From Escherichia coli (GTDB taxonomy: Bacteria > Pseudomonadota > Gammaproteobacteria > Enterobacterales > Enterobacteriaceae), in NCBI RefSeq assembly GCF_013315695.1, contig NZ_CP054353.1: DNA of 64,000 nt; one strand, given 5' to 3'. Shown piece after piece: positions 2,977-56,195 of this stretch. The stretch's first letter is position 1, and every line of letters begins with the position of its first letter. Below the pieces are notes generated by a model that had not been told where the DNA came from, searched no databases, and saw only the letters and a program-made list of their open reading frames with translations. A program made the position numbers and the translations under genes.

Positions 2977-3252
2977 GTGGCTTCTGTTTCTATCAGCTGT
3001 CCCTCCTGTTCAGCTACTGACGGGGTGGTGCGTAACGGCAAAAGCACCGCCGGACATCAGCGCTATCTCTGCTCTCACTGCCGTAAAACATGGCAACTGC
3101 AGTTCACTTACACCGCTTCTCAACCCGGTACGCACCAGAAAATCATTGATATGGCCATGAATGGCGTTGGATGCCGGGCAACAGCCCGCATTATGGGCGT
3201 TGGCCTCAACACGATTTTACGTCACTTAAAAAACTCAGGCCGCAGTCGGTAA
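2977..3252 (+). CDS. insA: IS1 InsA
   Basis: 91-aa product [39 protein letters not shown]... Confidence 0.95.
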
Positions 3253-3674
3253 CCTCGCGCATACAGCCGGGCAGTGACGTCATCGTCTGCGCGGAAATGG
3301 ACGAACAGTGGGGCTATGTCGGGGCTAAATCGCGCCAGCGCTGGCTGTTTTACGCGTATGACAGGCTCCGGAAGACGGTTGTTGCGCACGTATTCGGTGA
3401 ACGCACTATGGCGACGCTGGGGCGTCTTATGAGCCTGCTGTCACCCTTTGACGTGGTGATATGGATGACGGATGGCTGGCCGCTGTATGAATCCCGCCTG
3501 AAGGGAAAGCTGCACGTAATCAGCAAGCGATATACGCAGCGAATTGAGCGGCATAACCTGAATCTGAGGCAGCACCTGGCACGGCTGGGACGGAAGTCGC
3601 TGTCGTTCTCAAAATCGGTGGAGCTGCATGACAAAGTCATCGGGCATTATCTGAACATAAAACACTATCAATAA
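3171..3674 (+). CDS. insB: IS1 InsB frame (expressed as InsAB' by -1 frameshifting)
   Basis: 167-aa frame overlapping the insA 3' end; sequence typical of IS1 transposase. Confidence 0.9.
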
Positions 3675-3888: not shown

Positions 3889-4356
3889 TTATTTCAGGCA
3901 CTGAGTACGGATATATTCCTGCGCCCCTTCCAGTTGCTTCTGCATCGTCATCAGCCGCTCTCTGAGGGTGAAATAATCCCGTGTAACGGTGTCTGCCAGT
4001 TGGGGGCCGGTTGCATTATCCACGCGGGCGGTGCCGGTGGCTTCACGCACGGGACCTGGACAGGTGGCGTTGATACGCAGGCGCTTACGACCAGCGGCAA
4101 CGTCAGCGCGAAGAGTTTCATTTTCAGCTTTCGCATCAGCTAACTCCTTCGTGTATTTTGCATCGAGCGCAGCAACATCACGCTGACGCATCTGCATGTC
4201 AGTAATTGCCGCGTTCGCCAGCTTCAGTTCTCTGACATTTTTGTCGCGCTGGGCTTTGTAGGTAATGGCGTTATCACGGTAATGATTCAGCCCCAGACTA
4301 AGCGCACCACAGGCCACCAGCAGGGCAATGATGACCACGCACAGTACGCGGTTCAT
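3889..4356 (-). CDS. Rz i-spanin
   Basis: 155-aa product with N-terminal TM segment ([16 protein letters not shown]) and coiled-coil-like periplasmic part; contains an embedded Rz1 frame. Confidence 0.85.
3951..4136 (-). CDS. Rz1 o-spanin lipoprotein, embedded in Rz in another frame
   Basis: 61-aa frame with signal peptide plus lipobox-like LVVSAC and a proline-rich mature part. Confidence 0.7.
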
Positions 4357-6246: not shown

Positions 6247-8100
6247 TTATGATGATGCCGGTGCATTTATCTCCAGCACCAGACTTTCTATCTCAACGCC
6301 ATACGCTGCATTTTTGGTAATATCCGTCAGCGTCAGCGCATTCAGCCCCAGTGTCAGACTGTCTTTTATGACCTGGAATGCCGGGCCAGCCACTCCATTC
6401 AGTTTCGGAGTAACCGTGGCACTGCCGGCGGTGAACACCAGCTCCAGCGTCTGCCAGTCGTTACTGTAATTCCCGAACTCGCCCAACTTTGTGTTTCCTG
6501 CTTTCTTGTGATGCATCAGATTCAGTTTGCCGTCTGTGGTCTGGGTGAAGAACGACATCAGGAACGGGTTACCAGTCCCGGTCATCGCCACGACGTCAGG
6601 TAACGCTACATCGGTATACAGATAAATTCCCAGACCGAACTGGTTGTTGGTCAGTGCGCCTGACAGTCGAAACTTACAGCTCAGTCTGCCACCCCGTGTC
6701 AGCAGGGAGACTGCGTCATCCACCGGGCGCGTCAGGGACCAGGCTTTATTGCTCTGCTTGGTGATCTTAAATACACCATCTGACAACTGAATTCCGCCAT
6801 TCTTAATGCTCCAGCCCTGCGCAGCAGCGTCTCCGGCTGTCGGCAACAGGGAGATTGTGCGTATGGATGCATCTTCAGACGGCCCCGATGGCGTGTCGCC
6901 GCCGGGCGAGGGTTTGATTTCCGGTGCCTTACCACTAATGAAGGCTAAGGTGCGACCGGCTACGTTCAGAATAGCAGTTGCCATACGATCGGGAATAATG
7001 CCACGACGCGCCCATGAGCTGAAATGCGTCGGGCGATTTGATGATACCCAGTTTTTGTTCGTTCGGGATGCCGAACCGTAATAACCAGACCCGGCAATAT
7101 CAGGATCTTCTGACGGGTTGTTTGTCGGTGTATTAACTCCGCTACCATCGGTCATAAAGGGAACAAAATAAATCTGCTGGGATTCTTTACCTTTATATGC
7201 ACCATATACCACTTCATATTGCGTACCGTGTTCTTGTTTCCACGCGTATGTCGTGTCGCCACAAATCCAGGGGACTGATGCCGGACTTCCACCGTGACAC
7301 TGCGCCGCCAGCCCGGCAAGGTCAGCACGGAACTGCTGTACCATTGCAAGAAATGCTGCTGGCTGCTGGGCGTAACTGGCATTCGTCATATCGAATTCCC
7401 CCTGCATCCAGCATATCGCCAGCAAAACGTTTTTCGGGTTTTTCTGCAATGCTGCCTTCGTGCGGAAAAGCAGATCCTGATATAACGGCTTACCCACTCC
7501 CCAGCGAGCCGAATCCTGACTGGCTCCCGTGGACTCGCTGAATGTCCCCTCCGTGCCCTGGGTGAATGCCGAACCACCACGACAGCATGGTACCAGCAGG
7601 ATCCCCGCATTATTAGGGATATACGGAAGCAGTTTTTTGGCAATATGTAAGCCCTGTCCGACACAGCCGTACTGCCCTTTGCTCAGGTCAGCCCGGGGAT
7701 GGTTAATCGTACTCATATCCTGAACATCATGCAGACAATGGTCAGCAGGAATGATGTCGTTAAATACGCATACTTCACCACCGGGAGTCACTGTGTTACG
7801 ACGGGCCAGTTGCTTAATGCGCGGATGGGGCGCATCGTATGAATCCGGAAGCGGAAGCCCTTCACCGTAAGCCATGGCATTGGATTGCCCGGCCAGTACG
7901 ATGACGTAGTACCACTCCGGCTCAGTTGCACCACTGACGACCACATCACCTTCTGCTGCAATCGCCTGCATCAGGGTATAAGGGGTTATGGCCACCGGAC
8001 TACCAAACGGCTGCCAGCCCTCCTTCAGTTTTTGTGTCAGTCGTTTCGCAAGGTCTGACGGCGATGCCGCCCTGACCACGTCATAGTGTTTAAATGCCAT
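6247..8100 (-). CDS. prophage sialate O-acetylesterase-like SGNH hydrolase (NanS-p-like)
   Basis: 617-aa product; LAGQSNAMAYGEG block typical of SASA/SGNH esterases; GGGAGGA SD 5 nt upstream; position between tRNA genes and holin as in Stx-type lambdoid phages. Confidence 0.65.
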   Translation of the reverse strand: MAFKHYDVVRAASPSDLAKRLTQKLKEGWQPFGSPVAITPYTLMQAIAAEGDVVVSGATEPEWYYVIVLAGQSNAMAYGEGLPLPDSYDAPHPRIKQLARRNTVTPGGEVCVFNDIIPADHCLHDVQDMSTINHPRADLSKGQYGCVGQGLHIAKKLLPYIPNNAGILLVPCCRGGSAFTQGTEGTFSESTGASQDSARWGVGKPLYQDLLFRTKAALQKNPKNVLLAICWMQGEFDMTNASYAQQPAAFLAMVQQFRADLAGLAAQCHGGSPASVPWICGDTTYAWKQEHGTQYEVVYGAYKGKESQQIYFVPFMTDGSGVNTPTNNPSEDPDIAGSGYYGSASRTNKNWVSSNRPTHFSSWARRGIIPDRMATAILNVAGRTLAFISGKAPEIKPSPGGDTPSGPSEDASIRTISLLPTAGDAAAQGWSIKNGGIQLSDGVFKITKQSNKAWSLTRPVDDAVSLLTRGGRLSCKFRLSGALTNNQFGLGIYLYTDVALPDVVAMTGTGNPFLMSFFTQTTDGKLNLMHHKKAGNTKLGEFGNYSNDWQTLELVFTAGSATVTPKLNGVAGPAFQVIKDSLTLGLNALTLTDITKNAAYGVEIESLVLEINAPASS

Positions 8101-8322: not shown

Positions 8323-8325
8323 GTC

Positions 8326-8562
8326 CATAAGAAAGCCCCTCCGGAGAGGGGCTAAAGCCGCGTATCTGTATCATCATGCACATGGTGCCGGGTGCCTCCC
8401 GGTGAGTTCAGCCCGGTGCCACTAAACCCGCGTCATTCTCGTTTTGATAATCAGAGATTATACCGTCACCAGTCGCCCCTCCGCTCAGGGGGATTCACCA
8501 TGCGAAATTTTTTTAACAAATGCCCAGTCTGACAGGCAACTGTCAACTTACTGAATTGTGAG
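8326..8562. repeat. direct repeat copy A (about 237 bp) in the late operon
   Basis: Shares with copy B the blocks AAAGCCCCTCCGGAGAGGGGCT, CATGGTGCCGGGTGCCTCCCGGTGA, GCCCCTCCGC-CAGGGGGATTCACCATGC, TTTTAACAAA and CTGAATTGTGAG. Confidence 0.6.
8335..8352 (-). terminator. hairpin GCCCCTC-CGGA-GAGGGGC with downstream U-rich tract on the minus strand (repeat A)
   Basis: Perfect 7-bp GC stem; in minus orientation followed by TTTCTT. Confidence 0.45.
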
Positions 8563-8812
8563 CAACATAGCATTTAACGGGGAACCTGTTTTCTGCAGTA
8601 AAAAGGCCCACCGGAGCGGATGGGCCTGGAAGGATAGCGGTCATGTGATGCCGGTTTCCCGGTAACTCAGCACCGGTATCTGAGTCAACGTTTTCTCTAC
8701 TGGGTCATTTCCGATACGCCCTGCCTGCTGACAGGCTTTCATCACATCTGAAAATATAGCACCCTGACTGATACTGTAGTACCTAAGGTTCCAGAAACTG
8801 TGATGTATCCGG

Positions 8813-9038
8813 CACAGAAAAGCCCCTCCGGAGAGGGGCTGGAGAGTGGCGCTATGTGCCATTGCATGGTGCCGGGTGCCTCCCGGTGAATTCAGTACCA
8901 GCACCTGAATCCGCGATTATCCCATATACCTACTCGCTGATTGCCCCTCCGCACAGGGGGATTCACCATGCCAGTTTCTTTTAACAAACTCCCCGCAAAC
9001 CAGACAACAGTCAACCGCCTGAATTGTGAGACATTTAA
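8813..9038. repeat. direct repeat copy B
   Basis: Imperfect copy of repeat A about 480 bp away. Confidence 0.6.
8822..8839 (-). terminator. hairpin GCCCCTC-CGGA-GAGGGGC with downstream U-rich tract on the minus strand (repeat B)
   Basis: Same hairpin as copy A; in minus orientation followed by TTTTCT. Confidence 0.45.
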
Positions 9039-9074
9039 AAAAAGCCCGCAAAAGCGAGCCAGGGAAAATAAGTG

Positions 9075-9151
9075 TGGCGCGTTGTACTGGATTCGAACCA
9101 GTGACCGATTGCTTAGAAGGCAATTGCTCTGTCCGGCTGAGCTAACAACGC
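9075..9151 (-). tRNA. tRNA-Arg (anticodon UCU)
   Basis: Manual fold of the reverse complement: acceptor GCGTTGT/ACAACGC, D-arm GCTC/GAGC, anticodon stem ATTGC/GCAAT with loop CTTCTAA, T-arm ACTGG-TTCGAAT-CCAGT, discriminator G, CCA encoded. Confidence 0.8.
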
Positions 9152-9164
9152 AGGATACAGATAA

Positions 9165-9241
9165 TGGACCGCCTTCGGGGACCCGAACTCCGCGCAACCA
9201 GCTTCGAAAGCTGGCGCTCTTTCCTGATGAGCTAATGGCGG
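9165..9241 (-). tRNA. tRNA-like gene, Arg-type (anticodon UCG by manual fold), possibly degenerate
   Basis: D-arm TAGCTCATCAGGAAAGAGC, anticodon stem CCAGC/GCTGG with loop TTTCGAA, CCA encoded; one mismatch in the acceptor stem and one in the T stem; T-loop TTCGGGT is non-consensus. Confidence 0.5.
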
Positions 9242-9248
9242 TATGTGA

Positions 9249-9324
9249 TGGTGGCCCTTGCTGGATTTGAACCAGCGACCTGGCGATTATGAGTCGCTCG
9301 CTCTCACCACTGAGCTAAAGGGCC
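9249..9324 (-). tRNA. tRNA with CAU anticodon, ileX-like (tRNA-Ile2/lysidine type; could be Met)
   Basis: Acceptor GGCCCTT/AAGGGCC perfect, anticodon loop CTCATAA, T-arm GCTGG-TTCAAAT-CCAGC, discriminator A, CCA encoded; closely resembles E. coli ileX from memory. Confidence 0.8.
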
Positions 9325-9373
9325 GGGAGCAGAATAATAATGGTGCGTAATTAATTCTGCAATCTCATCCGTT

Positions 9374-10423
9374 TCAAACGATTAAATCCTGAACTTCCCT
9401 GACTGTCTGCTCAAAACGTCCGGTCTCCAGTTCAACGCCAATCGCACGACGCCCAAGCGCCAGTGCCGCTTTTACCGTTGAACCTGAGCCCATAAAAAAA
9501 TCTGCAACCAGGTCACCCGGACGACTGCTTGCGCTGATTATCTGCTGCAGCATTTCTGCCGGTTTTTCGCACGGATGTTTCCCGGGATAGAACTGCACCG
9601 GTTTATGTGTCCACACATCCGTGTACGGCACCTGCGCCGTCACACCAAAATACCGCCGCAGATGCTTATATTCACTCTGCAGCTCCACATACTGCCGGTT
9701 CAGTGACGTATACGTATCCACCAGCTGGTGGTGGGGCTTTTCCAGTTCACCGCGCTGATGTTTCTCTTCTGCCACCCGGGCAAACAGCGACTGTAATTTC
9801 AGATAATCGCTTTCGTTCGGTAGCTGCCACTGACTGGCACTGAACCAGTGCGACACCATGTTTTTCTTTCCTGTGGCATCTGCAATCTGTTTTGCCGTTA
9901 TCCCCAGGGCAGCGCGCGCATCACGAAAGTAAGAAATCAGCGGGGCCATCACATGCTGTTTCAGTGCACTGCCCTTCGCCGCATACCCGGCATCTTTCGG
10001 ACGATACGGCCCCTGATAATGTTCCGCGAACAGAATGCGCTCTGTGGCGGGGAAATACGCCCGCAGGCTTTCCTTGTTGCATCCGTTCCAGCGTCCGGAC
10101 GGCTTCGCCCAGATAATATGGTTCAGCACACTGAAGCGTTCACGCATCATGATTTCGATATCAGATGCCAGGCGATGACCACAGAACAGGTAAAGACTTC
10201 CGACAGGTTTCAGCACCCGCCAGAACTGCGCCAGACACTGGTCCAGCCACTTCAGGTAATCATCGTCGCCCTTCCACTGGTTATCCCAGCCCTCAGGCTT
10301 CACTTTAAAGTACGGCGGGTCCGTGACTATCAGGTCAACAGAATTTTCGGGTAACGACCGGATAAATTCCAGGCAGTCGGCGTTGATTAACTCACAACTG
10401 GATATTTTTACAGTATTAAGCAT
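9374..10423 (-). CDS. orphan DNA methyltransferase (beta-class N6-adenine/N4-cytosine type)
   Basis: 349-aa product with catalytic DPPY motif near the N-terminus (LIVTDPPYF) and AdoMet motif FFMGSGST near the C-terminus; no adjacent restriction endonuclease gene. Confidence 0.8.
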   Translation of the reverse strand: MLNTVKISSCELINADCLEFIRSLPENSVDLIVTDPPYFKVKPEGWDNQWKGDDDYLKWLDQCLAQFWRVLKPVGSLYLFCGHRLASDIEIMMRERFSVLNHIIWAKPSGRWNGCNKESLRAYFPATERILFAEHYQGPYRPKDAGYAAKGSALKQHVMAPLISYFRDARAALGITAKQIADATGKKNMVSHWFSASQWQLPNESDYLKLQSLFARVAEEKHQRGELEKPHHQLVDTYTSLNRQYVELQSEYKHLRRYFGVTAQVPYTDVWTHKPVQFYPGKHPCEKPAEMLQQIISASSRPGDLVADFFMGSGSTVKAALALGRRAIGVELETGRFEQTVREVQDLIV

Positions 10424-10985: not shown

Positions 10986-11675
10986 TTAATTGACTTTTGC
11001 AATATCTCGTCGTGAAAAAGTCGCTTTTTGTTGCGCTCTTATTTTCACGGTGCAAATCACAGATTCTCTATCGAGACTCTTAAAAATATCGCACATCTCA
11101 CGCCAGTAGTTCGCATAATTATGGCTCCAGTTATCAGGCTTAACTCCACACAGTCTGGCAAGCTCCTGTCTCTGGTAGACCTCACACCCGGTAATCCATC
11201 CTCTGACATCCTGTGCCGCCAGCCAGATCAACTTCTTCACGCGCTCCTGCGTTTTCCCTGCAATTTTTCTGGTGCCGTACCGGGTTTTAAATTCATTCCA
11301 CACCCACTGCGTTATCGCGATCTGATATTCCCAACAAATACTCCCGCTGTAACACCACAACAACCAGGCTTTATGATGTTCTTCAAGAGACAGAACAGCC
11401 CGCCGCCACGATGATGTCGAAAACTCAACCGGACTGACGAGAGGAATTGACACCCCCTTCGCCAGCGATTGCTTTCCCGGGATTGGTGGATTATCCCGCG
11501 TTATCATTTTTCCAGTCACTTCATCGCGGTACCGGATTTTTTTACGCCTGTAACGCCCTGTATCAAACATGGCATTCTCCTGCCAGGCCTCAAGCTGCCC
11601 TTTTGTTGATCCACTCAAATCGGCGGTGGCAATCATGAGTTGCTCACGAACAAACTGTAAATACTGGTTATTCAT
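10986..11675 (-). CDS. putative late-gene antiterminator Q
   Basis: 229-aa ORF in the canonical position (after rusA, before the terminator-rich late operon); Cys-rich central region; the family assignment is by position and my recall only. Confidence 0.55.
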   Translation of the reverse strand: MNNQYLQFVREQLMIATADLSGSTKGQLEAWQENAMFDTGRYRRKKIRYRDEVTGKMITRDNPPIPGKQSLAKGVSIPLVSPVEFSTSSWRRAVLSLEEHHKAWLLWCYSGSICWEYQIAITQWVWNEFKTRYGTRKIAGKTQERVKKLIWLAAQDVRGWITGCEVYQRQELARLCGVKPDNWSHNYANYWREMCDIFKSLDRESVICTVKIRAQQKATFSRRDIAKVN

Positions 11676-13927: not shown

Positions 13928-14614
13928 TCACTCCTTCTCTTCTTTTCCGTAGTGGAGTTGGCCAATTTTGATAAGAGGGCGTCCCTGAGATTTGCGGTGT
14001 AGATTGGTATCGCGCAGAGAATACACACAGCCACAATATTCCTGCTGATAGAATTTTTCGCGCTTGCTGATTTCAATCATACGGGACGAGCCGCCCTGCT
14101 TGCGCCAGTTATAATCCCAGTACACCATACCCGGATAATGCGCAACAGCTCGCCGCCCACACTCGTTAACCTGCTGCATATTTTTCCAGCGTGAAATGCC
14201 CAGTGAACTGCTGATCACACTGAAACCATTTTCAGCAGCGTACAACGCTGTCCGCTCAAAACGCATGTCAAAACACATGGTACAACGGATCCCCCTCTCA
14301 GGCTCCCATTCCATTCCTTTGGCACGTTCAAACCAGTTGTCGGTGTCGTAATCAGCATCGATAAACGGCACGCCGTGTTGTTCAGCAAAGCGAATATTTT
14401 CATCCTTACGAATTAAATACTCTTTCTGAGGATGAATGTTCGGGTTGTAGAAAAAGATGGTGTAGTCGATTCCCGAGGCCTGAAGCGCCTCCATCACTTC
14501 ACCGGAACATGGAGCACAGCAAGAGTGCAGTAGTAGTTTGTTTGCCCCGTTTGGGAGCTCCAATTTAGGCCGTTTGAAATCAGCAATAGTCATAAATATT
14601 TTTATTGGGGTCAT
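13928..14614 (-). CDS. QueH-like (DUF208) epoxyqueuosine reductase homologue
   Basis: 228-aa product with N-terminal [11 protein letters not shown] motif and further Cys motifs (CTMCF, YCGCVY) characteristic of the QueH/DUF208 family; true start may be the Met 7 codons downstream. Confidence 0.6.
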
Positions 14615-21057: not shown

Positions 21058-23529
21058 ATGAGTAAGGTCTTTATTTGCGCTGCTATTCCTGATGAACAGG
21101 CCATAAAAGAAGATAGCGCTGTTGCGGTGGCCACTGCCATTGAAGCTGGTGATGAGCGTCGCGCACGCGCAAAATTTCATTGGCAATTTCTGGAGCAATT
21201 CCCTGCAGCTCAGGACTGCGCTTATAAATTTATTGTCTGTGAGGATAAACCCGGCATACCCCGCCCTGCCCTCGATTCCTGGGATGCTGAATATATGCAG
21301 GAAAACCGCTGGGATGAGGAGTCTGCTTCCTTTGTCCCGGTTGAGACTGAATCCGATCCGATGAACGTCACTTTTGACAAGCTGGCCCCTGAAGTACAGA
21401 ACGCTGTCATGGTTAAGTTCGACACATGTGAAAACATCACCGTTGATATGGTTATTAGCGCACAGGAATTGTTGCAGGAAGACATGGCAACATTCGACGG
21501 ACATATCGTTGAAGCGTTGATGAAAATGCCAGAAGTTAACGCCATGTATCCGGAGCTTAAGCTGCATGCCATCGGGTGGGTTAAGCATAAATGTAAGCCT
21601 GGTGCCAAATGGCCCGAAATTCAGGCAGAGATGCGCATCTGGAAAAAACGTCGCGAAGGTGAACGTAAGGAAACCGGAAAATACACGTCTGTTATTGATC
21701 TCGCCCGCGCCAGAACCAATCAACAGCACAGTGAAAATTCAACAGGAAAAATCAGCCCGGTCATTGCTGCCATTCATCGCGAATACAAGCAGACATGGAA
21801 AACACTGGATGACGAACTGGCCTACGCTCTCTGGCCTGGTGATGTGGATGCCGGAAACATTGACGGCAGCATCCATCGCTGGGCAAAAAATGAAGTTATC
21901 GACAACGACCGCGAAGACTGGAAGCGTATCTCGGCATCAATGCGCAAACAGCCTGATGCCCTTCGCTACGACCGCCAAACTATTTTTGGCCTTGTCCGTG
22001 AGCGTCCGATCGACATTCACAAAGATCCCGTAGCACTGAACAAATATATCTGCGAATACCTGACGACAAAGGGCGTGTTTGAGAATGAAGAAACAGACCT
22101 GGGCACTGTTGATGTTCTCCAGTCATCAGAAACACAAACTGATGCAGTGGAAACTGAGGTATCTGATATCCCAAAAAATGAAACCGCGCCGGAAGCTGAA
22201 CCATCTGTAGAGCGTGAGGGGCCGTTCTATTTCCTCTTCGCAGATAAGGACGGAGAAAAATGCGGTCGCGCAAACAAACTTTCTGGTCTGGATAAGGCAC
22301 TGGCTGCTGGCGCCACTGAAATCACAAAAGAAGAATATTTTGCCCGAAAAAATGGCACATACACGGGCTTACCGCAAAATGTAGATACCGCTGAAGATTC
22401 AGAACAACCAGAGCCGATAAAAGTTACCGCTGACGAAGTAAACAAAATTATGCAGGCAGCCAATATCAGCCAGCCTGACGCCGATAAGTTGCTTGCTGCA
22501 TCACGTGGTGAATTTGTTGAAGGGATTAGTGACCCGAATGATCCGAAATGGGTTAAGGGGATCCAGACCCGCGATTCTGTGAACCAGAACCAGCATGAAT
22601 CGGAACGGAACTACCAAAAAGCGGAACAAAACAGCCCAAATGCGTTACAAAACGAGCCAGAAACGAAACAGCCTGAACCAGTGGCGCAACAGGAAGTGGA
22701 AAAAGTCTGCACCGCCTGCGGTCAGACCGGCGGCGGCAACTGCCCTGATTGTGGCGCGGTGATGGGCGACGCAACATACCAGGAAACATTCGATGAAGAG
22801 TATCAGGTTGAAGTTCAGGAAGATGATCCGGAGGAAATGGAAGGCGCTGAACATCCACACAAGGAGAACACTGGCGGCAATCAGCATCACGATAGCGATA
22901 ATGAAACTGGCGAGACGGCAGATCGCTCAATTAAGGTGAACGGTCATCACGAAATCACATCCACCAGCAGGACGTGTGACCATCTAATGATCGACCTTGA
23001 AACCATGGGAAAAAATCCTGATGCCCCGATCATCTCAATAGGTGCAATATTTTTCGATCCGCAAACCGGAGATATGGGACCGGAATTTAGTAAGACTATC
23101 GATCTGGAAACTGCTGGCGGAGTCATTGATCGGGACACCATTAAATGGTGGCTTAAGCAATCACGCGAAGCGCAATCTGCCATTATGACCGATGAAATCC
23201 CGTTAGATGATGCACTGTTACAATTGCGGGAATTTATCGACGAAAACTCCGGTGAATTTTTTGTTCAGGTTTGGGGAAATGGAGCCAACTTCGACAACAC
23301 GATTTTGCGCCGTTCATACGAACGGCAGGGGATCCCCTGCCCGTGGCGTTACTACAACGATCGCGATGTACGCACAATCGTTGAGCTGGGGAAAGCCATA
23401 GACTTCGATGCCAGAACGGCTATTCCATTCGAAGGTGAGCGCCATAATGCACTTGATGACGCCCGTTACCAGGCAAAATACGTTTCAGTTATCTGGCAAA
23501 AACTGATCCCGAGTCAGGCTGATTTTTAA
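21058..23529 (+). CDS. prophage exonuclease (823 aa) with C-terminal DnaQ-like DEDDh 3'-5' exonuclease domain
   Basis: C-terminal motifs MIDLETMG (Exo I), GNGANFDNTIL (Exo II), HNALDDARY (Exo III); central zinc-ribbon-like CTACGQTGGGNCPDCG; long acidic region; early-left operon position of recE. Confidence 0.6.
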   Translation: MSKVFICAAIPDEQAIKEDSAVAVATAIEAGDERRARAKFHWQFLEQFPAAQDCAYKFIVCEDKPGIPRPALDSWDAEYMQENRWDEESASFVPVETESDPMNVTFDKLAPEVQNAVMVKFDTCENITVDMVISAQELLQEDMATFDGHIVEALMKMPEVNAMYPELKLHAIGWVKHKCKPGAKWPEIQAEMRIWKKRREGERKETGKYTSVIDLARARTNQQHSENSTGKISPVIAAIHREYKQTWKTLDDELAYALWPGDVDAGNIDGSIHRWAKNEVIDNDREDWKRISASMRKQPDALRYDRQTIFGLVRERPIDIHKDPVALNKYICEYLTTKGVFENEETDLGTVDVLQSSETQTDAVETEVSDIPKNETAPEAEPSVEREGPFYFLFADKDGEKCGRANKLSGLDKALAAGATEITKEEYFARKNGTYTGLPQNVDTAEDSEQPEPIKVTADEVNKIMQAANISQPDADKLLAASRGEFVEGISDPNDPKWVKGIQTRDSVNQNQHESERNYQKAEQNSPNALQNEPETKQPEPVAQQEVEKVCTACGQTGGGNCPDCGAVMGDATYQETFDEEYQVEVQEDDPEEMEGAEHPHKENTGGNQHHDSDNETGETADRSIKVNGHHEITSTSRTCDHLMIDLETMGKNPDAPIISIGAIFFDPQTGDMGPEFSKTIDLETAGGVIDRDTIKWWLKQSREAQSAIMTDEIPLDDALLQLREFIDENSGEFFVQVWGNGANFDNTILRRSYERQGIPCPWRYYNDRDVRTIVELGKAIDFDARTAIPFEGERHNALDDARYQAKYVSVIWQKLIPSQADF

Positions 23530-29069: not shown

Positions 29070-29221
29070 ATAAATTAAATATTATTTAAATTCAAAGCAA
29101 TAACGAAAGACAGTCAACATAATCAATAATAAAGGGCGCATTTAAGTACACATTAATCTAAGCGCCCCTTTTTTTTCGCTACGACTTATACTTTCAGTCT
29201 GACATCTGGCTGGAGGTTTCT

Positions 29222-29479
29222 ATGTGCGGACGCTTTTCACAGTCAATGACGCGTGAAGACTATCTCGCCCTTCTCGCAGATGAAGTCGAGCAAGACATTC
29301 CATATGACCCTGAACCGATCGGACGTTTCAACGTTGCGCCAGGCACCAAAGTTCTGCTTCTGAGCGAACGTGACGAGAAACTCCATCTTGATCCAGTTTT
29401 CTGGGGATACGCCCCGGATGGTGGGATAAACCTGGATTTTTACACATACCAAAGACAGATTAGATACTCTACTAATTAG
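29222..29479 (+). pseudogene. 5' fragment of an SRAP/YedK-family gene (about 70 codons), truncated
   Basis: MCGRFSQSMTREDYLALLADEVEQDIPYDPEPIGRFNVAPGTKVLLLSERDEKLHLDPVFWGYAP then unrelated AT-rich sequence and a stop; full-length family members are about 220 aa. Confidence 0.6.
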
Positions 29480-29587
29480 ATTTTAAACTCATGATTAGTA
29501 AGAGAGACTACCATGATTTATTTAACCAAAATGTCATTTTGTGATATTCTGCATAAAAGTTCATTATTCTAGAGATAGAGCATTAAT

Positions 29588-31381
29588 ATGAGTATCGGTT
29601 TGAGCAAAGTCGTTACAAGATATAAAAACTTAAAGTTGAAATCATATGTTTTCGACATTGTCAACGTTATGTTTTTATTGTACTTATTTTGTTTTCTAAA
29701 TCAGTCAATAGTTATCATAGGAAATATTGAACCGCCTAAAGAGTTAATTGGTGCAATATTGAATTTCATCTGGCGTTCATCCCCCATTTTGTTTATTTAT
29801 TTGTTATTTAGAATAATAAACATTCCAATTTTTCTATGTTCTTATTTATCAGGCATCGCAATTATAACATTGATGTTTGTGAACAGTACTAAAATGGCGT
29901 TAACCGGTGAGCCTTTATCATTTAATGACATTGTTTCTGGATTCAATTTGAGTGTCGCAGGAAAATACCTCAACTTATCATCCATTACTTACTCTGTCGC
30001 TATTCTAATTGGCGCAATAATCTCAATCCTACTTAGCAAAAAAACGGTCACAACAAGAAAAAATTATATATCGTTATTTCTTTTAATTATCATTACGATC
30101 CCCTTTTCATTCTACCCCTATATTGGAACCATTTTTAGCCCTAACAATAGGATTTCTGAAATCATAAACTCCAGCGCGAACAACTTAAATATAAAATATA
30201 TTTACTGGAATTGGTCTCAAAATATTGGCGTTAATGGCTTGCCAATGCATATAATACAAACAAGTGTCAGAAAATCTGTACCACATGCAACTGATGCAGA
30301 ACAATTAAGATATTTAGATGAAAAAAGATCTTTAGTATCCACTCATATAAAAAATAAAACCATTATTTATGTTTTATGTGAATCATGTTGGTATGATAAA
30401 AAAAACTTCCGAGAAAATTTCAAACCTGTTATTGATGAAGGTTACAGTGAATTACGGGCCATCTCACCAGTTTACGGTGGAGGTACCGCAAATGCCGAAT
30501 TTGAAATGCTGACAGGACTACCAAGTAATTCAGATAAAATATCAGGAATCATCTATCAAGAATATTCAGATGCATTCAAACCAAAAGTTGACGCATTACC
30601 TAATGCCCTGAAAAACAAAGGCTATATTACTTTCGCAGCACATAATTACCAAGCAGACTTTTGGTATAGGAATAAAATTTACCCTAAATTTGGATTTGAT
30701 AGATTTGATAGCATTATTAATATGGGAGATTTACCACCAGAGTATAGCAGTATTAAAAAACCATGGCAGTGGCAACCTGATGACTACCTGCTTTACAATG
30801 CAGCATTAAAAGCCATCCAAAATGCAGGAAACAAAGATATTTTTGTACATTTGATCACTATGTCAACTCATGGTCCTTATCAACACATTAATGATTATGG
30901 TGAAGGTGTTTATACCTATGAGATTAATGAGGCAGTCAAAAGATTCGTTCAATTTTCACAGCAAGTAGAAAAAATAGATCCAAATGCTGTAATCGTCTTT
31001 TACGGTGACCATAAACCACCACTAAATAAATATTTCGTCGAAAATGGGGTGCTACCAAGTAATATTTTCAACAAAATCGGAGAAGAAAAAGATGAAGATT
31101 TCGTCTTTAAAATGAGCACAACCCCACTCGATTTTGGTGATGTTCCTGTGCTTATTAAATCAAATGATAAAGACGCCATTAAAAAATTCATAACCGACGC
31201 CAATGGAAAACCTTTTTTCTGTGTATCTTCATTAGTTGATAAACATTTCATTCAATCTGGATTGGTATCATTTAATCACAACGCAAAGCATGTCTGTGAA
31301 AACAGTGATAACTTTAATTATGATAAGTTAATTAACATGACCCCGTCGTGGATTTATTCAATGTCATTATTTCACGATTAG
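29588..31381 (+). CDS. sulfatase-superfamily membrane protein (LTA-synthase / phosphoethanolamine-transferase-like), AT-rich
   Basis: 597-aa product; N-terminal multi-TM region, C-terminal domain with YVLCESCW and STHGPYQH motifs; codon usage strongly AT-biased. Confidence 0.6.
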   Translation: MSIGLSKVVTRYKNLKLKSYVFDIVNVMFLLYLFCFLNQSIVIIGNIEPPKELIGAILNFIWRSSPILFIYLLFRIINIPIFLCSYLSGIAIITLMFVNSTKMALTGEPLSFNDIVSGFNLSVAGKYLNLSSITYSVAILIGAIISILLSKKTVTTRKNYISLFLLIIITIPFSFYPYIGTIFSPNNRISEIINSSANNLNIKYIYWNWSQNIGVNGLPMHIIQTSVRKSVPHATDAEQLRYLDEKRSLVSTHIKNKTIIYVLCESCWYDKKNFRENFKPVIDEGYSELRAISPVYGGGTANAEFEMLTGLPSNSDKISGIIYQEYSDAFKPKVDALPNALKNKGYITFAAHNYQADFWYRNKIYPKFGFDRFDSIINMGDLPPEYSSIKKPWQWQPDDYLLYNAALKAIQNAGNKDIFVHLITMSTHGPYQHINDYGEGVYTYEINEAVKRFVQFSQQVEKIDPNAVIVFYGDHKPPLNKYFVENGVLPSNIFNKIGEEKDEDFVFKMSTTPLDFGDVPVLIKSNDKDAIKKFITDANGKPFFCVSSLVDKHFIQSGLVSFNHNAKHVCENSDNFNYDKLINMTPSWIYSMSLFHD

Positions 31382-31731
31382 TATCTAGAAAATAATTGTA
31401 ATAAATCATCATTAATTATGTAGACGCCTAAAATTAGGCATCTACATTTTATTAGAAAAGAGGTTGTCCTGACTAGGTTGTGGAAATGTGCATCGCATAA
31501 ATCAAGGCTATAGAGCATGAAAGTGCGTTCTTCCCCCTCTACCATTGATAAATATTTAAAAGTGCTCACGCTGGATTCGATCCAGGCATTAGCATCTTTG
31601 AGTGAGAATTCCCAGTTAACTTTGCTCAACCCCTGAACAAATCGCTGTGTAGTGACGGTCTTCCGGCCATTCGGCTCTTGCTGTATCGAAGAATACCAGG
31701 CTATTTCAATATCGCTGCGTCGTGGCATCAT
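31378..31731 (-). CDS. hypothetical protein (117 aa), possibly a gene fragment
   Basis: ATG pair with GAGGG upstream; divergent from the dinI-like gene; ORF-track ORF extends to 31977. Confidence 0.35.
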   Translation of the reverse strand: MMPRRSDIEIAWYSSIQQEPNGRKTVTTQRFVQGLSKVNWEFSLKDANAWIESSVSTFKYLSMVEGEERTFMLYSLDLCDAHFHNLVRTTSFLIKCRCLILGVYIINDDLLQLFSRY

Positions 31732-31771
31732 TACGCCCTCTCTTGAATACCGGATAAAAACACAGTATAAA

Positions 31772-31791
31772 TACTGTATATACACCCAGTA
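31772..31791. promoter_or_regulatory. LexA (SOS) box upstream of the dinI-like gene
   Basis: TACTGTATATACACCCAGTA: CTGT-N8-CCAG, one mismatch from the CTGT-N8-ACAG core; overlapping palindrome ACAGTATAAATACTGT just upstream. Confidence 0.6.
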
Positions 31792-31806
31792 AAGAGGCAA
31801 TGAGCA

Positions 31807-32034
31807 ATGTTCGTGGAACTCGTTTATGGCAAAAGGAATTTTGATGGACTGCCCGGTGCAAAAGATATCATTCTGGGCGAGTTGACCAAGAGGGTTCACC
31901 GGATTTTCCCCGGCGCTGATGTCCGGGTTAAACCGATGATGACATTGCCGGCGATCAACACTGACGCCAACAAGCATGAGAATGAACAGATAAGCCGTAC
32001 TGTTCAGGAAATGTTTGAAGAGACTGATATGTAG
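31807..32034 (+). CDS. DinI-like protein
   Basis: 75-aa product MFVELVYGKRNFDGLPGAKDIILGELTKRVHRIFPGADVRVKPMMTLPAINTDANKHENEQISRTVQEMFEETDM; AGAGG RBS; LexA box upstream. Confidence 0.7.
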   Translation: MFVELVYGKRNFDGLPGAKDIILGELTKRVHRIFPGADVRVKPMMTLPAINTDANKHENEQISRTVQEMFEETDM

Positions 32035-32122
32035 CTGTTTTCAGATTAAACGCCTTGAACCGTCACACTGATTAAGTACAATCCGGCGTGGTTGCGGCTT
32101 CCAGATTATAAGAATGATTCCC

Positions 32123-32550
32123 TTACTCACTTTTCAGCGCATTCACTTCTTCTCGTAATTCACTGAGTTCGTTCATTAGTACCAGAATCGCTTCATGATG
32201 CAACGCTGCCGCAACGCCGTAAGTATCTGGAGAGAGTACTCCTTCCACCATAGTTCCATCAGGAAGTTGACGATCACCTCCCTCAGTTACTGCCTGGGGG
32301 AAGATTTTCTTAACATCCTGCGCGATAAACCCAATCCCCCATTGTCCGGTATCTTTTCGCGTCCAGGAACAACCTTTTAGCATTTCCATCTTACTGAGCG
32401 GGTCTCCAATTCTGGACACTCCATCTTTCAGGCGGCCATCTGAATTCGGAACCCATGCTCCAGGCGCTACAGCGTTACCAGTTGATTTCATAAAGCTCCA
32501 TGTGGTTCCTGAGCTTGCGTTTGCTACCTGAATATTCCCTGATAAAGAAC
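32123..32550 (-). pseudogene. C-terminal fragment of a phage tail-fibre protein (intramolecular chaperone-type domain), 5' end removed by IS insertion
   Basis: ...GQWGIGFIAQDVKKIFPQAVTEGGDRQLPDGTMVEGVLSPDTYGVAAALHHEAILVLMNELSELREEVNALKSE; the frame runs upstream into the IS inverted repeat. Confidence 0.6.
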
Positions 32551-33473
<923 letters not shown>

Positions 33474-33602
33474 GTATCGGTAGAAAAAAGAAACTTTACC
33501 AGCCTGACTGATCCTTGCGTTCAGCCCATGAGAATCTGAAATGGTTTCGATATCATCTCGTTTCTTGCCCAGGGACTTCCTGAGCTTTGTGTCGGTAATC
33601 AT
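33474..33602 (-). pseudogene. N-terminal fragment (43 codons) of a P4-type integrase, cut by the IS element
   Basis: [43 protein letters not shown] resembles the DUF4102-type N-terminus of P4-family integrases; frame runs into the IS right end. Confidence 0.5.
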
Positions 33603-34105
33603 TGAATGTGTACACATCTGGCTTGCGAGTACGCAAAAGTGTACACAAAACTCGTTGCTCAAAGATACCCGCAATGTAACACTTGTACTCGAAGTGTGAT
33701 GGCTTAGGGGCTGAAAGGCAGATGGCGTAAGGGTTCAACGTAACAGAACGTTTTTATGCGAAATTCTTCGAAATGGTCTGAATGACATTTTAAGAAAGTG
33801 TTCTGAATAGAAATTCAATATTTAAGGGCACGGTTTTTGCAACCGTGTTCTTGTTTGGCCTTTCCTTATAGGTCGGTCAGTGCATTCACCACCACAAGCA
33901 GATAATAACTTTATCTGTATTTCTTTATATGATGTGAACATATTCAGGAAAATGCCCTTTCCTGACGCAGAGTTGCTCACTCAAAACCTTTGATTACTGC
34001 GGATAAAGTCATCTACTATTGTTTAACACATTCACGCGCTGCATGTATGTTCAGAAAATGTGCACGTTGAGATAATTAAACAAAATTGTGGTTACAGAGG
34101 TATCA

Positions 34106-55992: not shown

Positions 55993-56076
<84 letters not shown>

Positions 56077-56110: not shown

Positions 56111-56195
<85 letters not shown>

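Follow-up and report, generated by a model that had tools for sequence, protein, structure and literature searches.

The window, a 64,000-nucleotide stretch of Escherichia coli DNA, carries three tRNA genes on its minus strand, within a prophage. The elements of the tRNA cluster, from upstream to downstream, were as follows.

9334-9362, minus strand: promoter-like element, TTGCAG (9362-9357), a 17-nt spacer, and TATTAT (9339-9334), read from the sequence
9249-9324, minus strand: ileZ, tRNA with anticodon CAU (ARAGORN; Rfam RF00005, 72.5 bits, E=2.5e-15)
9242-9248, minus strand: ileZ-argN spacer, 7 nt, UCACAUA
9165-9241, minus strand: argN, tRNA-Arg(UCG), degenerate allele (ARAGORN; Rfam RF00005, 42.9 bits, E=3.6e-07)
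9152-9164, minus strand: argN-argO spacer, 13 nt, UUAUCUGUAUCCU
9075-9151, minus strand: argO, tRNA-Arg(UCU), AGA/AGG decoder (ARAGORN; Rfam RF00005, 70.1 bits, E=1.2e-14)
9035-9060, minus strand: intrinsic-terminator-like hairpin, GGCTCGCTTTTGCGGGCT followed by TTTTTTT (terminator scan)

An earlier note, made from the sequence by hand, had placed three minus-strand tRNAs here, and its coordinates and anticodons (CAU, UCG, and UCU) agree exactly with those of ARAGORN. Its manual fold of the middle gene held as well, in that no tool gave another anticodon and every tool found a cloverleaf. With an RF00005 gathering score of 29 bits, the middle gene (42.9 bits) belongs to the family, and the E-values indicate that none of the three is a chance match; the genes on either side (CAU and UCU) are clean, as had been claimed, at 72.5 and 70.1 bits. 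Strain AR_0013 has an identical copy of the cluster, with argN at 3650372-3650448 of NZ_CP032204.1, in which PGAP annotates tRNA-Ile, tRNA-Arg, and tRNA-Arg, so that ileZ is a tRNA-Ile (lysidine type, AUA decoder) and an allele identical to the window argN is called tRNA-Arg. Rfam "Plastid-ycf2" matches opposite ileZ fell below the family threshold and were discarded as antisense-of-tRNA artifacts, and two open reading frames (ORFs) over the cluster (8892-9197 and 8941-9270) were rejected as spurious.

The promoter-like element ends 9 nt upstream of the mature ileZ 5' end, and across 104 loci each of its hexamers shows ≥90% conservation, which extends to loci with unrelated upstream DNA. A consensus scanner did not report it, the −35 hexamer matching at only 3 of 6 positions; from its sequence and place, TTGCAG-17 nt-TATTAT is a putative sigma-70-like promoter that would serve the tRNA operon. 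The ileZ-argN spacer is polymorphic in length across loci (1, 7, or 9 nt), and the first five bases of the argN-argO spacer, UUAUC, are invariant. The terminator-like hairpin is GC-rich, starts 15 nt past argO, and is found again in other loci, where both strands of its stem have changed. A CCA is encoded in each of the three genes and is intact in the window argN. The cluster thus has the appearance of an independent tRNA operon within the late region, and such a compact unit (promoter, short spacers, encoded CCAs, and terminator) implies that the three tRNAs are probably cotranscribed in the lysogen. Q-antiterminated late transcription would add to this, and host tRNA-processing enzymes would excise the tRNAs from the precursor.

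The surrounding minus-strand genes and RNA elements, again from upstream to downstream, were as follows.

10986-11675, minus strand: Q antiterminator, preceded by RusA and followed by a small ORF, all upstream of the methylase
9374-10423, minus strand: N6_N4 DNA methylase, directly before the tRNAs
8323-8532, 8598-8771, and 8810-9000, minus strand: three tandem STnc100-like RNA elements (Rfam)
6247-8100, minus strand: SASA esterase
3889-4356, minus strand: Rz, with holin and lysozyme, at the distal end of this order

The methyltransferase that the earlier note saw adjoining the tRNAs is the upstream N6_N4 methylase ORF. Downstream of the tRNAs, no protein cargo precedes the SASA esterase gene; in Stx2 phages, stx2AB lies between argO and the STnc100 element, and the same slot is present here without a protein gene. 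The STnc100-like elements, which take up the space from the tRNA terminator to the esterase gene, score 165, 30, and 136 bits against a gathering score of 47, the middle copy being degenerate. Each of them ends in a GC hairpin and a T run. Stx2a_1447 has a single STnc100 copy, just downstream of stx2B.

The prophage adjoins ompW, and from int to Rz, it is 99.6% identical to the AR_0013 prophage. It ends after Rz at IS1 (3171-3674), followed by a DUF892 gene (2084-2584) and trpA (632-1438), and it is without morphogenesis genes, with no terminase, head, or tail genes past Rz. The prophage is an IS1-truncated remnant of ~21 kb. In AR_0013, the prophage continues past the lysis region with IS3 and IS629 fragments, a group II intron, and then terminase and portal genes. 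The window prophage also encodes QueH (epoxyqueuosine reductase, a tRNA modification enzyme; 13928-14614, minus strand; annotation from the identical AR_0013 copy) and so carries both tRNA genes and a tRNA-modifying gene.

Elsewhere in the window, a low-GC segment (~29083-33789; ~4.7 kb; GC content, 36 to 47%) between yciI and kch is absent from AR_0013. It contains a 597-amino-acid sulfatase-family protein, a 199-amino-acid ORF without a Pfam match, a Peptidase_S74 (endosialidase chaperone) domain fragment, and an IS3-family transposase. The host tyrT-tyrV pair, tandem tRNA-Tyr(GTA) genes on the plus strand (55993-56075 and 56111-56195), lies between the narG operon side and the hns/adhE/opp region; these are ordinary chromosomal tRNAs.

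Comparison with the ileZ-argN-argO cluster of Stx phages, as the earlier note had proposed, showed the two clusters to be homologous, with the same order and anticodons. The 301-nt cluster was matched at 90 to 95% identity by 289 phage records, mostly Stx2-converting phages, whose features, where named, are ileZ, argN, and argO. On the strength of its position between ileZ and argO, its place downstream of Q, its anticodon UCG, and this homology, the middle gene is identified as argN, the tRNA-Arg(UCG) of the lambdoid/Stx-phage ileZ-argN-argO operon. Both the cluster and the names of its genes have long been known, and the feature in the window is an allele of a known gene. The three genes were reportedly first described by Plunkett et al. 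in 1999 (J Bacteriol). In 933W (GenBank accession number AF125520), argN is annotated at ~21198-21291; 933W, VT2-Sakai, and related phages carry three tRNA genes, and phiP27 carries two (PMC4631060). Papers on Stx2 phages routinely list two tRNA-Arg genes and a CAU tRNA labeled Met (PMC7946995).

The closest known systems, in phages 933W and VT2-Sakai, share with the window the gene order, the orientation, the place downstream of Q and the DNA methylase, and the three anticodons, and their clusters are 93 to 95% identical to it overall, with ileZ and argO essentially identical. The window differs in lacking stx genes, in having a terminator followed by three STnc100-like elements, and in lying in a truncated remnant. 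Among complete E. coli genomes, 3,060 of 5,426 contain the cluster, with up to 13 copies per genome; RefSeq E. coli has roughly 7,600 copies, and 267 RefSeq E. coli genomes carry the whole cluster at ≥99% identity. The window-type argN allele was found in none of 50,697 phage genome records (best match, 91.8% over 97 nt). A scan of 100,044 species genomes with the ileZ 3' end returned only three loci (E. albertii, an Escherichia sp., and one metagenome-assembled genome); at that stringency, the cluster appears confined to Escherichia, and the scan therefore offered no distant argN for covariation analysis.

The earlier note had described the middle gene as sound in its D and anticodon arms, with one mismatch in the acceptor stem, one in the T stem, and a nonconsensus T loop. 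ARAGORN and the Rfam alignment concur on both sound arms and the anticodon, and the cmscan alignment marks all three irregularities. The acceptor stem forms 6 of its 7 pairs (mismatch A6·A67), and the T stem forms 4 of 5 (A52·C62, adjoining G53-C61). The T loop, UUCGGGU, departs from T54-Psi55-C56-R57-A58 in having G58 for the near-universal A58; intact argN alleles have UUCGAGU or UUCAAGU. The D stem is fully paired (4/4), and the D arm (loop AUCAGGAAA) has U8, A14, G18-G19, and A21. The anticodon loop, UUUCGAA, is 7 nt long and has U33, preceded by U32.

Arginine identity for E. coli arginyl-tRNA synthetase (ArgRS) is dominated by A20, C35, and G36 or U36, with A73 or G73 as a minor element. 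The window argN has A20 (D loop AUCAGG-A-AA) and the anticodon U34-C35-G36; position 73 is U, as in every argN allele, including the intact ones. These features could be read as those of an atypical functional tRNA-Arg(UCG), which is processed, charged by ArgRS, and reads CGA and CGG, its changes being tolerated or mildly deleterious. Consistent with that reading, ARAGORN, Rfam (above the gathering score), and PGAP/tRNAscan-SE all call the window allele, and A20, C35, G36, U33, G18-G19, G53-C61, and the CCA are all retained. The argN of reference Stx phages itself scores only 55.9 bits and has the unusual U73, so the family is already noncanonical. Some natural tRNAs tolerate single stem mismatches, and phage tRNAs are often noncanonical. 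Against it, all three changes fall at positions of importance to the L shape or to an intact helix.

Calculated as a cloverleaf, the window argN has an energy of −20.0 kcal/mol, versus −28.3 to −30.7 kcal/mol for intact alleles (8 to 11 kcal/mol weaker), and lies 9 kcal/mol above its own minimum free energy; minimum-free-energy folding mispredicts ileZ and argO too, which makes this a weak argument about argN. The minimum-free-energy structure of the window argN is an alternative hairpin (U54-A67 through G58-C63) that the derived G58 and A67 strengthen. Selection for this fold was considered and rejected, the hairpin energy lying at the 50th percentile of random triple mutants (acceptor stem, T stem, and T loop).

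To place the window allele among its relatives, 120 IMG/VR loci were gathered with exact anchors (the ileZ 3' end and the argO 5' end), and their middle segments comprised 57 distinct forms. The intact alleles, including those in VT2-Sakai (L005) and Stx2a_1447 (L125), have stems of 7/7, 4/4, 5/5, and 5/5 pairs. A second scan recovered 93 IMG/VR loci (≥99% identity; 89 alignable) of the clade to which the window belongs, defined by A52, G58, and A67. Its main haplotypes carry C32 (41 loci) or U32 (36 loci, window included) and occur in very different flanking backgrounds. Only positions 52, 58, and 67 separate the C32 haplotype from the nearest intact sequence, as inferred here; the window allele departs from that sequence by G52A, A58G, U67A, and C32U. 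The same four changes mark the window against the 933W argN, with 90.4% identity over the 97-nt middle segment. Intermediate alleles carry only A67 (L138 and L149) or only G58 (L032, L011, L036, and L068). By this comparison, the defects of the window argN are derived relative to intact alleles.

Rfam scores fall in step: the Stx2 phage argN has 55.9 bits, the window allele has 42.9, and a sister allele that has two additional changes and is left unannotated by PGAP has 30.6; rearranged forms of the middle gene have no Rfam match. The window allele is common and has changed little in prophages of diverse backgrounds (the 93 IMG/VR loci and the 267 RefSeq genomes), as a functional tRNA might be. 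Against function, the acceptor and T-arm changes are compensated in 0 of the 89 alignable clade members, sister alleles are still gaining pair-breaking changes, and no sequenced phage has the window allele.

Per-site diversity was computed on 111 aligned loci, with ileZ and argO taken outside the search anchors. It was 0.008 in ileZ, 0.192 in argN, 0.19 in the two spacers, and 0.078 in argO, the last inflated by nine loci with a replaced 3' half. Of 200 loci, 179 had an identical ileZ over the 51 nt outside the anchor, and 131 had an identical argO; in 11 loci, a T-stem pair of argO had undergone a compensatory swap from C-G to G-C. Judged from these patterns, ileZ and argO are under strong purifying selection. 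In the nine loci with a replaced half (L053, L092, and seven others), argO homology stops at the 3' strand of the anticodon stem, with unrelated sequence after it, which may mark a recombination or integration breakpoint inside a tRNA gene. Position 37 of argO is G instead of A in nine other loci, including VT2-Sakai (L005 type).

The middle gene behaves like the spacers. Its state in 119 loci was intact in 48 (40%), G58 only in 5, window clade in 15, and otherwise defective or rearranged in 51, and ARAGORN missed argN in about one-third of loci. The spacer-like rate of evolution and the defects in 60% of copies argue against an atypical functional tRNA, a reading that we consider possible if rather unlikely. 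Intact argN was not cleanly associated with stx (15 stx-linked loci: 9 intact, 1 G58 only, and 5 defective). Among 42 distinct argN alleles, pairing and covariation were not above shuffled controls (94.4% versus 94.3% of cells paired), in a test to which the shallow divergence among alleles gives little power; all double changes belonged to one Lys-type allele. In the 89 loci of the window clade, segregating sites made up 11 of the 62 free sites in argN, versus 9 of 128 in ileZ and argO (Fisher P=0.04, marginal), and the new variants include the pair-breaking G10T, T7C, and G50A. The pseudogene pattern of neutral-like substitution without compensation thus holds for the argN gene family and, for the window clade alone, is marginal.

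Diversity within argN is uneven, at 0.034 in the acceptor 5' strand, 0.000 at nt 8-9, and 0.022 over position 73 and the CCA; the anticodon arm reaches 0.25 to 0.37, versus 0.19 in the spacers. This gradient would fit a middle gene kept as a processing spacer, in which the acceptor/T minihelix and CCA guide RNase P and 3' processing of the tricistronic precursor. So would the L004 type, one of the forms among the 32 of 119 loci with indels or rearrangements, which keeps a 7/7 acceptor stem, a 5/5 T-like stem, and the CCA. However, the interior diversity may reflect a few multicolumn replacement events, and the window allele and the L039 type have acceptor mismatches; the neighbors are kept even where the ileZ-argN spacer is as short as 1 nt or the middle gene as short as 66 nt. 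We regard a processing spacer as improbable.

No other single form of the middle gene is as common as the L004 type (L004 1610-1689 and ~25 further IMG/VR loci, including L008, L010, L019, and L050). In this type, ~28 nt of unrelated sequence take the place of the anticodon arm and variable region, the T loop is GCGGGU, and no tRNA detector calls the gene; it can be folded into a fully paired acceptor stem (7/7), a D-like arm, a hairpin of 7 bp, a 5-bp T-like stem, and CCA. ARAGORN calls a tRNA-Lys(UUU) in the argN slot of L003 (1594-1670; E. coli RM14723) and of L082, and PGAP agrees for L003. The anticodon stem of this Lys-type gene is rebuilt by compensatory changes on both strands, and acceptor pair 7:66 has covaried from U-A to C-G in L082 and its deletion derivative L007. 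Its anticodon loop, CCUUUAA, has C at the normally invariant U33, the T stem has a mismatch, and the gene scores 37 Rfam bits. The Lys-type form is a possible case of anticodon remodeling in a phage tRNA.

Phage tRNAs are able to rescue infection from tRNA cleavage, as with the T5 tRNA-Lys against PARIS (PMC11464382) and with retron effectors (PMC11555353), and tRNA-Arg is among the several tRNAs cleaved by P2 OLD, which acts against lambdoid phages (PMC12445682). The high polymorphism of the argN slot, together with the UUU-anticodon form and its compensatory anticodon-stem changes in some prophages, could then reflect diversification under tRNA-cleaving defenses or colicins, with the window allele as a nuclease-resistant gene or a decoy. 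To this counterdefense reading we give next to no weight, because argN is just as diverse as the spacers and no more so, changes that preserve structure are not in excess, and many alleles have no anticodon arm at all. Of the window changes, C32U alone falls in the anticodon loop and the others affect the T arm and acceptor stem, and the alternative hairpin that the changes create is, as noted above, no more stable than in random triple mutants. A broader version casts the middle slot as a fast-turnover tRNA cassette driven by the same defenses or colicins, in which the anticodon arm would be swapped repeatedly (mostly UCG, with the UUU Lys type and replaced hairpins) and the window allele would be a nuclease-insensitive or decoy tRNA-Arg; we hold it to be very improbable. 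The published counterdefense tRNAs (PMC11464382 and PMC11555353) are likewise phage borne and differ from host isoacceptors; their structure is sound and most of their differences lie in the anticodon stem-loop, whereas damage to the window allele affects its T arm and acceptor stem. No link of the window allele to any defense system was found.

Other known systems come nearer. The window argN resembles tRNA pseudogenes in its uncompensated mismatches, its loss of A58, its lower covariance-model score, and the spacer-rate evolution of its family. Unlike them, it sits in an apparently active operon between conserved tRNAs and is probably transcribed, with a probable loss of function. The tRNA-Asn and tRNA-Thr genes of the lambdoid phages SfI, Sf6, ST64T, and P21 (PMC3636060) also lie in the slot downstream of Q, and it has been proposed that they supplement host tRNAs for codons overused in phage genes. 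They differ in tRNA identity; one of them has no codon-usage rationale, as in the window (PMC3636060).

Whether the middle gene is a pseudo-tRNA or an atypical functional tRNA had been left open in the earlier note. The comparative evidence leans toward a degenerate, decaying allele, since the defects are derived, argN evolves like a spacer without detectable covariation, the allele is absent from sequenced phages, and the prophage is truncated. We conclude that the window argN is probably a cotranscribed but decaying tRNA gene, hypomorphic or dead, between selected neighbors; weak residual function is possible.

On this account, argN would have been a working tRNA-Arg(UCG) in the ancestral operon, dispensable enough to decay independently in several prophage lineages, of which the window copy would be one. 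G52A would break a T-stem pair, A58G would remove the conserved tertiary partner in T54-A58, and U67A would break an acceptor pair. The window argN would still be made within the precursor, most likely to mature, be charged, or bind EF-Tu poorly, and it would hitchhike between its two selected neighbors in the IS1-truncated remnant.

The host reads CGA and CGG with its own tRNA-Arg(ICG) and tRNA-Arg(CCG), and the decoders of AUA and AGA/AGG are the scarcest tRNAs in E. coli. With this host tRNA set, argN, a decoder of CGA/CGG, is likely dispensable because the host has adequate CGN decoders. Low codon demand was rejected as the reason: CGG is ~3-fold commoner in prophage-side than in host-side genes, which would itself speak for a functional tRNA. 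Per 1,000 codons, CGA and CGG together amount to 16.5 in prophage-side ORFs versus 6.9 in host-side ORFs, and AGA and AGG together amount to 13.8; as CGA plus CGG is no lower in the prophage than AGA plus AGG, codon demand does not explain the dispensability of argN.

A literature search returned no prior report of argN drifting at the spacer rate with ileZ and argO frozen, and this pattern is an incremental addition to known biology; the decay of argN opens no new mechanism. For annotation, the window copy is best treated as a probable tRNA pseudogene or hypomorph and not as an extra CGA/CGG decoder. The wider pattern also cautions that not every phage-borne tRNA need serve codon supplementation. 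That ileZ and argO stay near invariant even in dead prophages while argN drifts suggests selection for the AUA and AGA/AGG decoders only, possibly acting at the level of the host.
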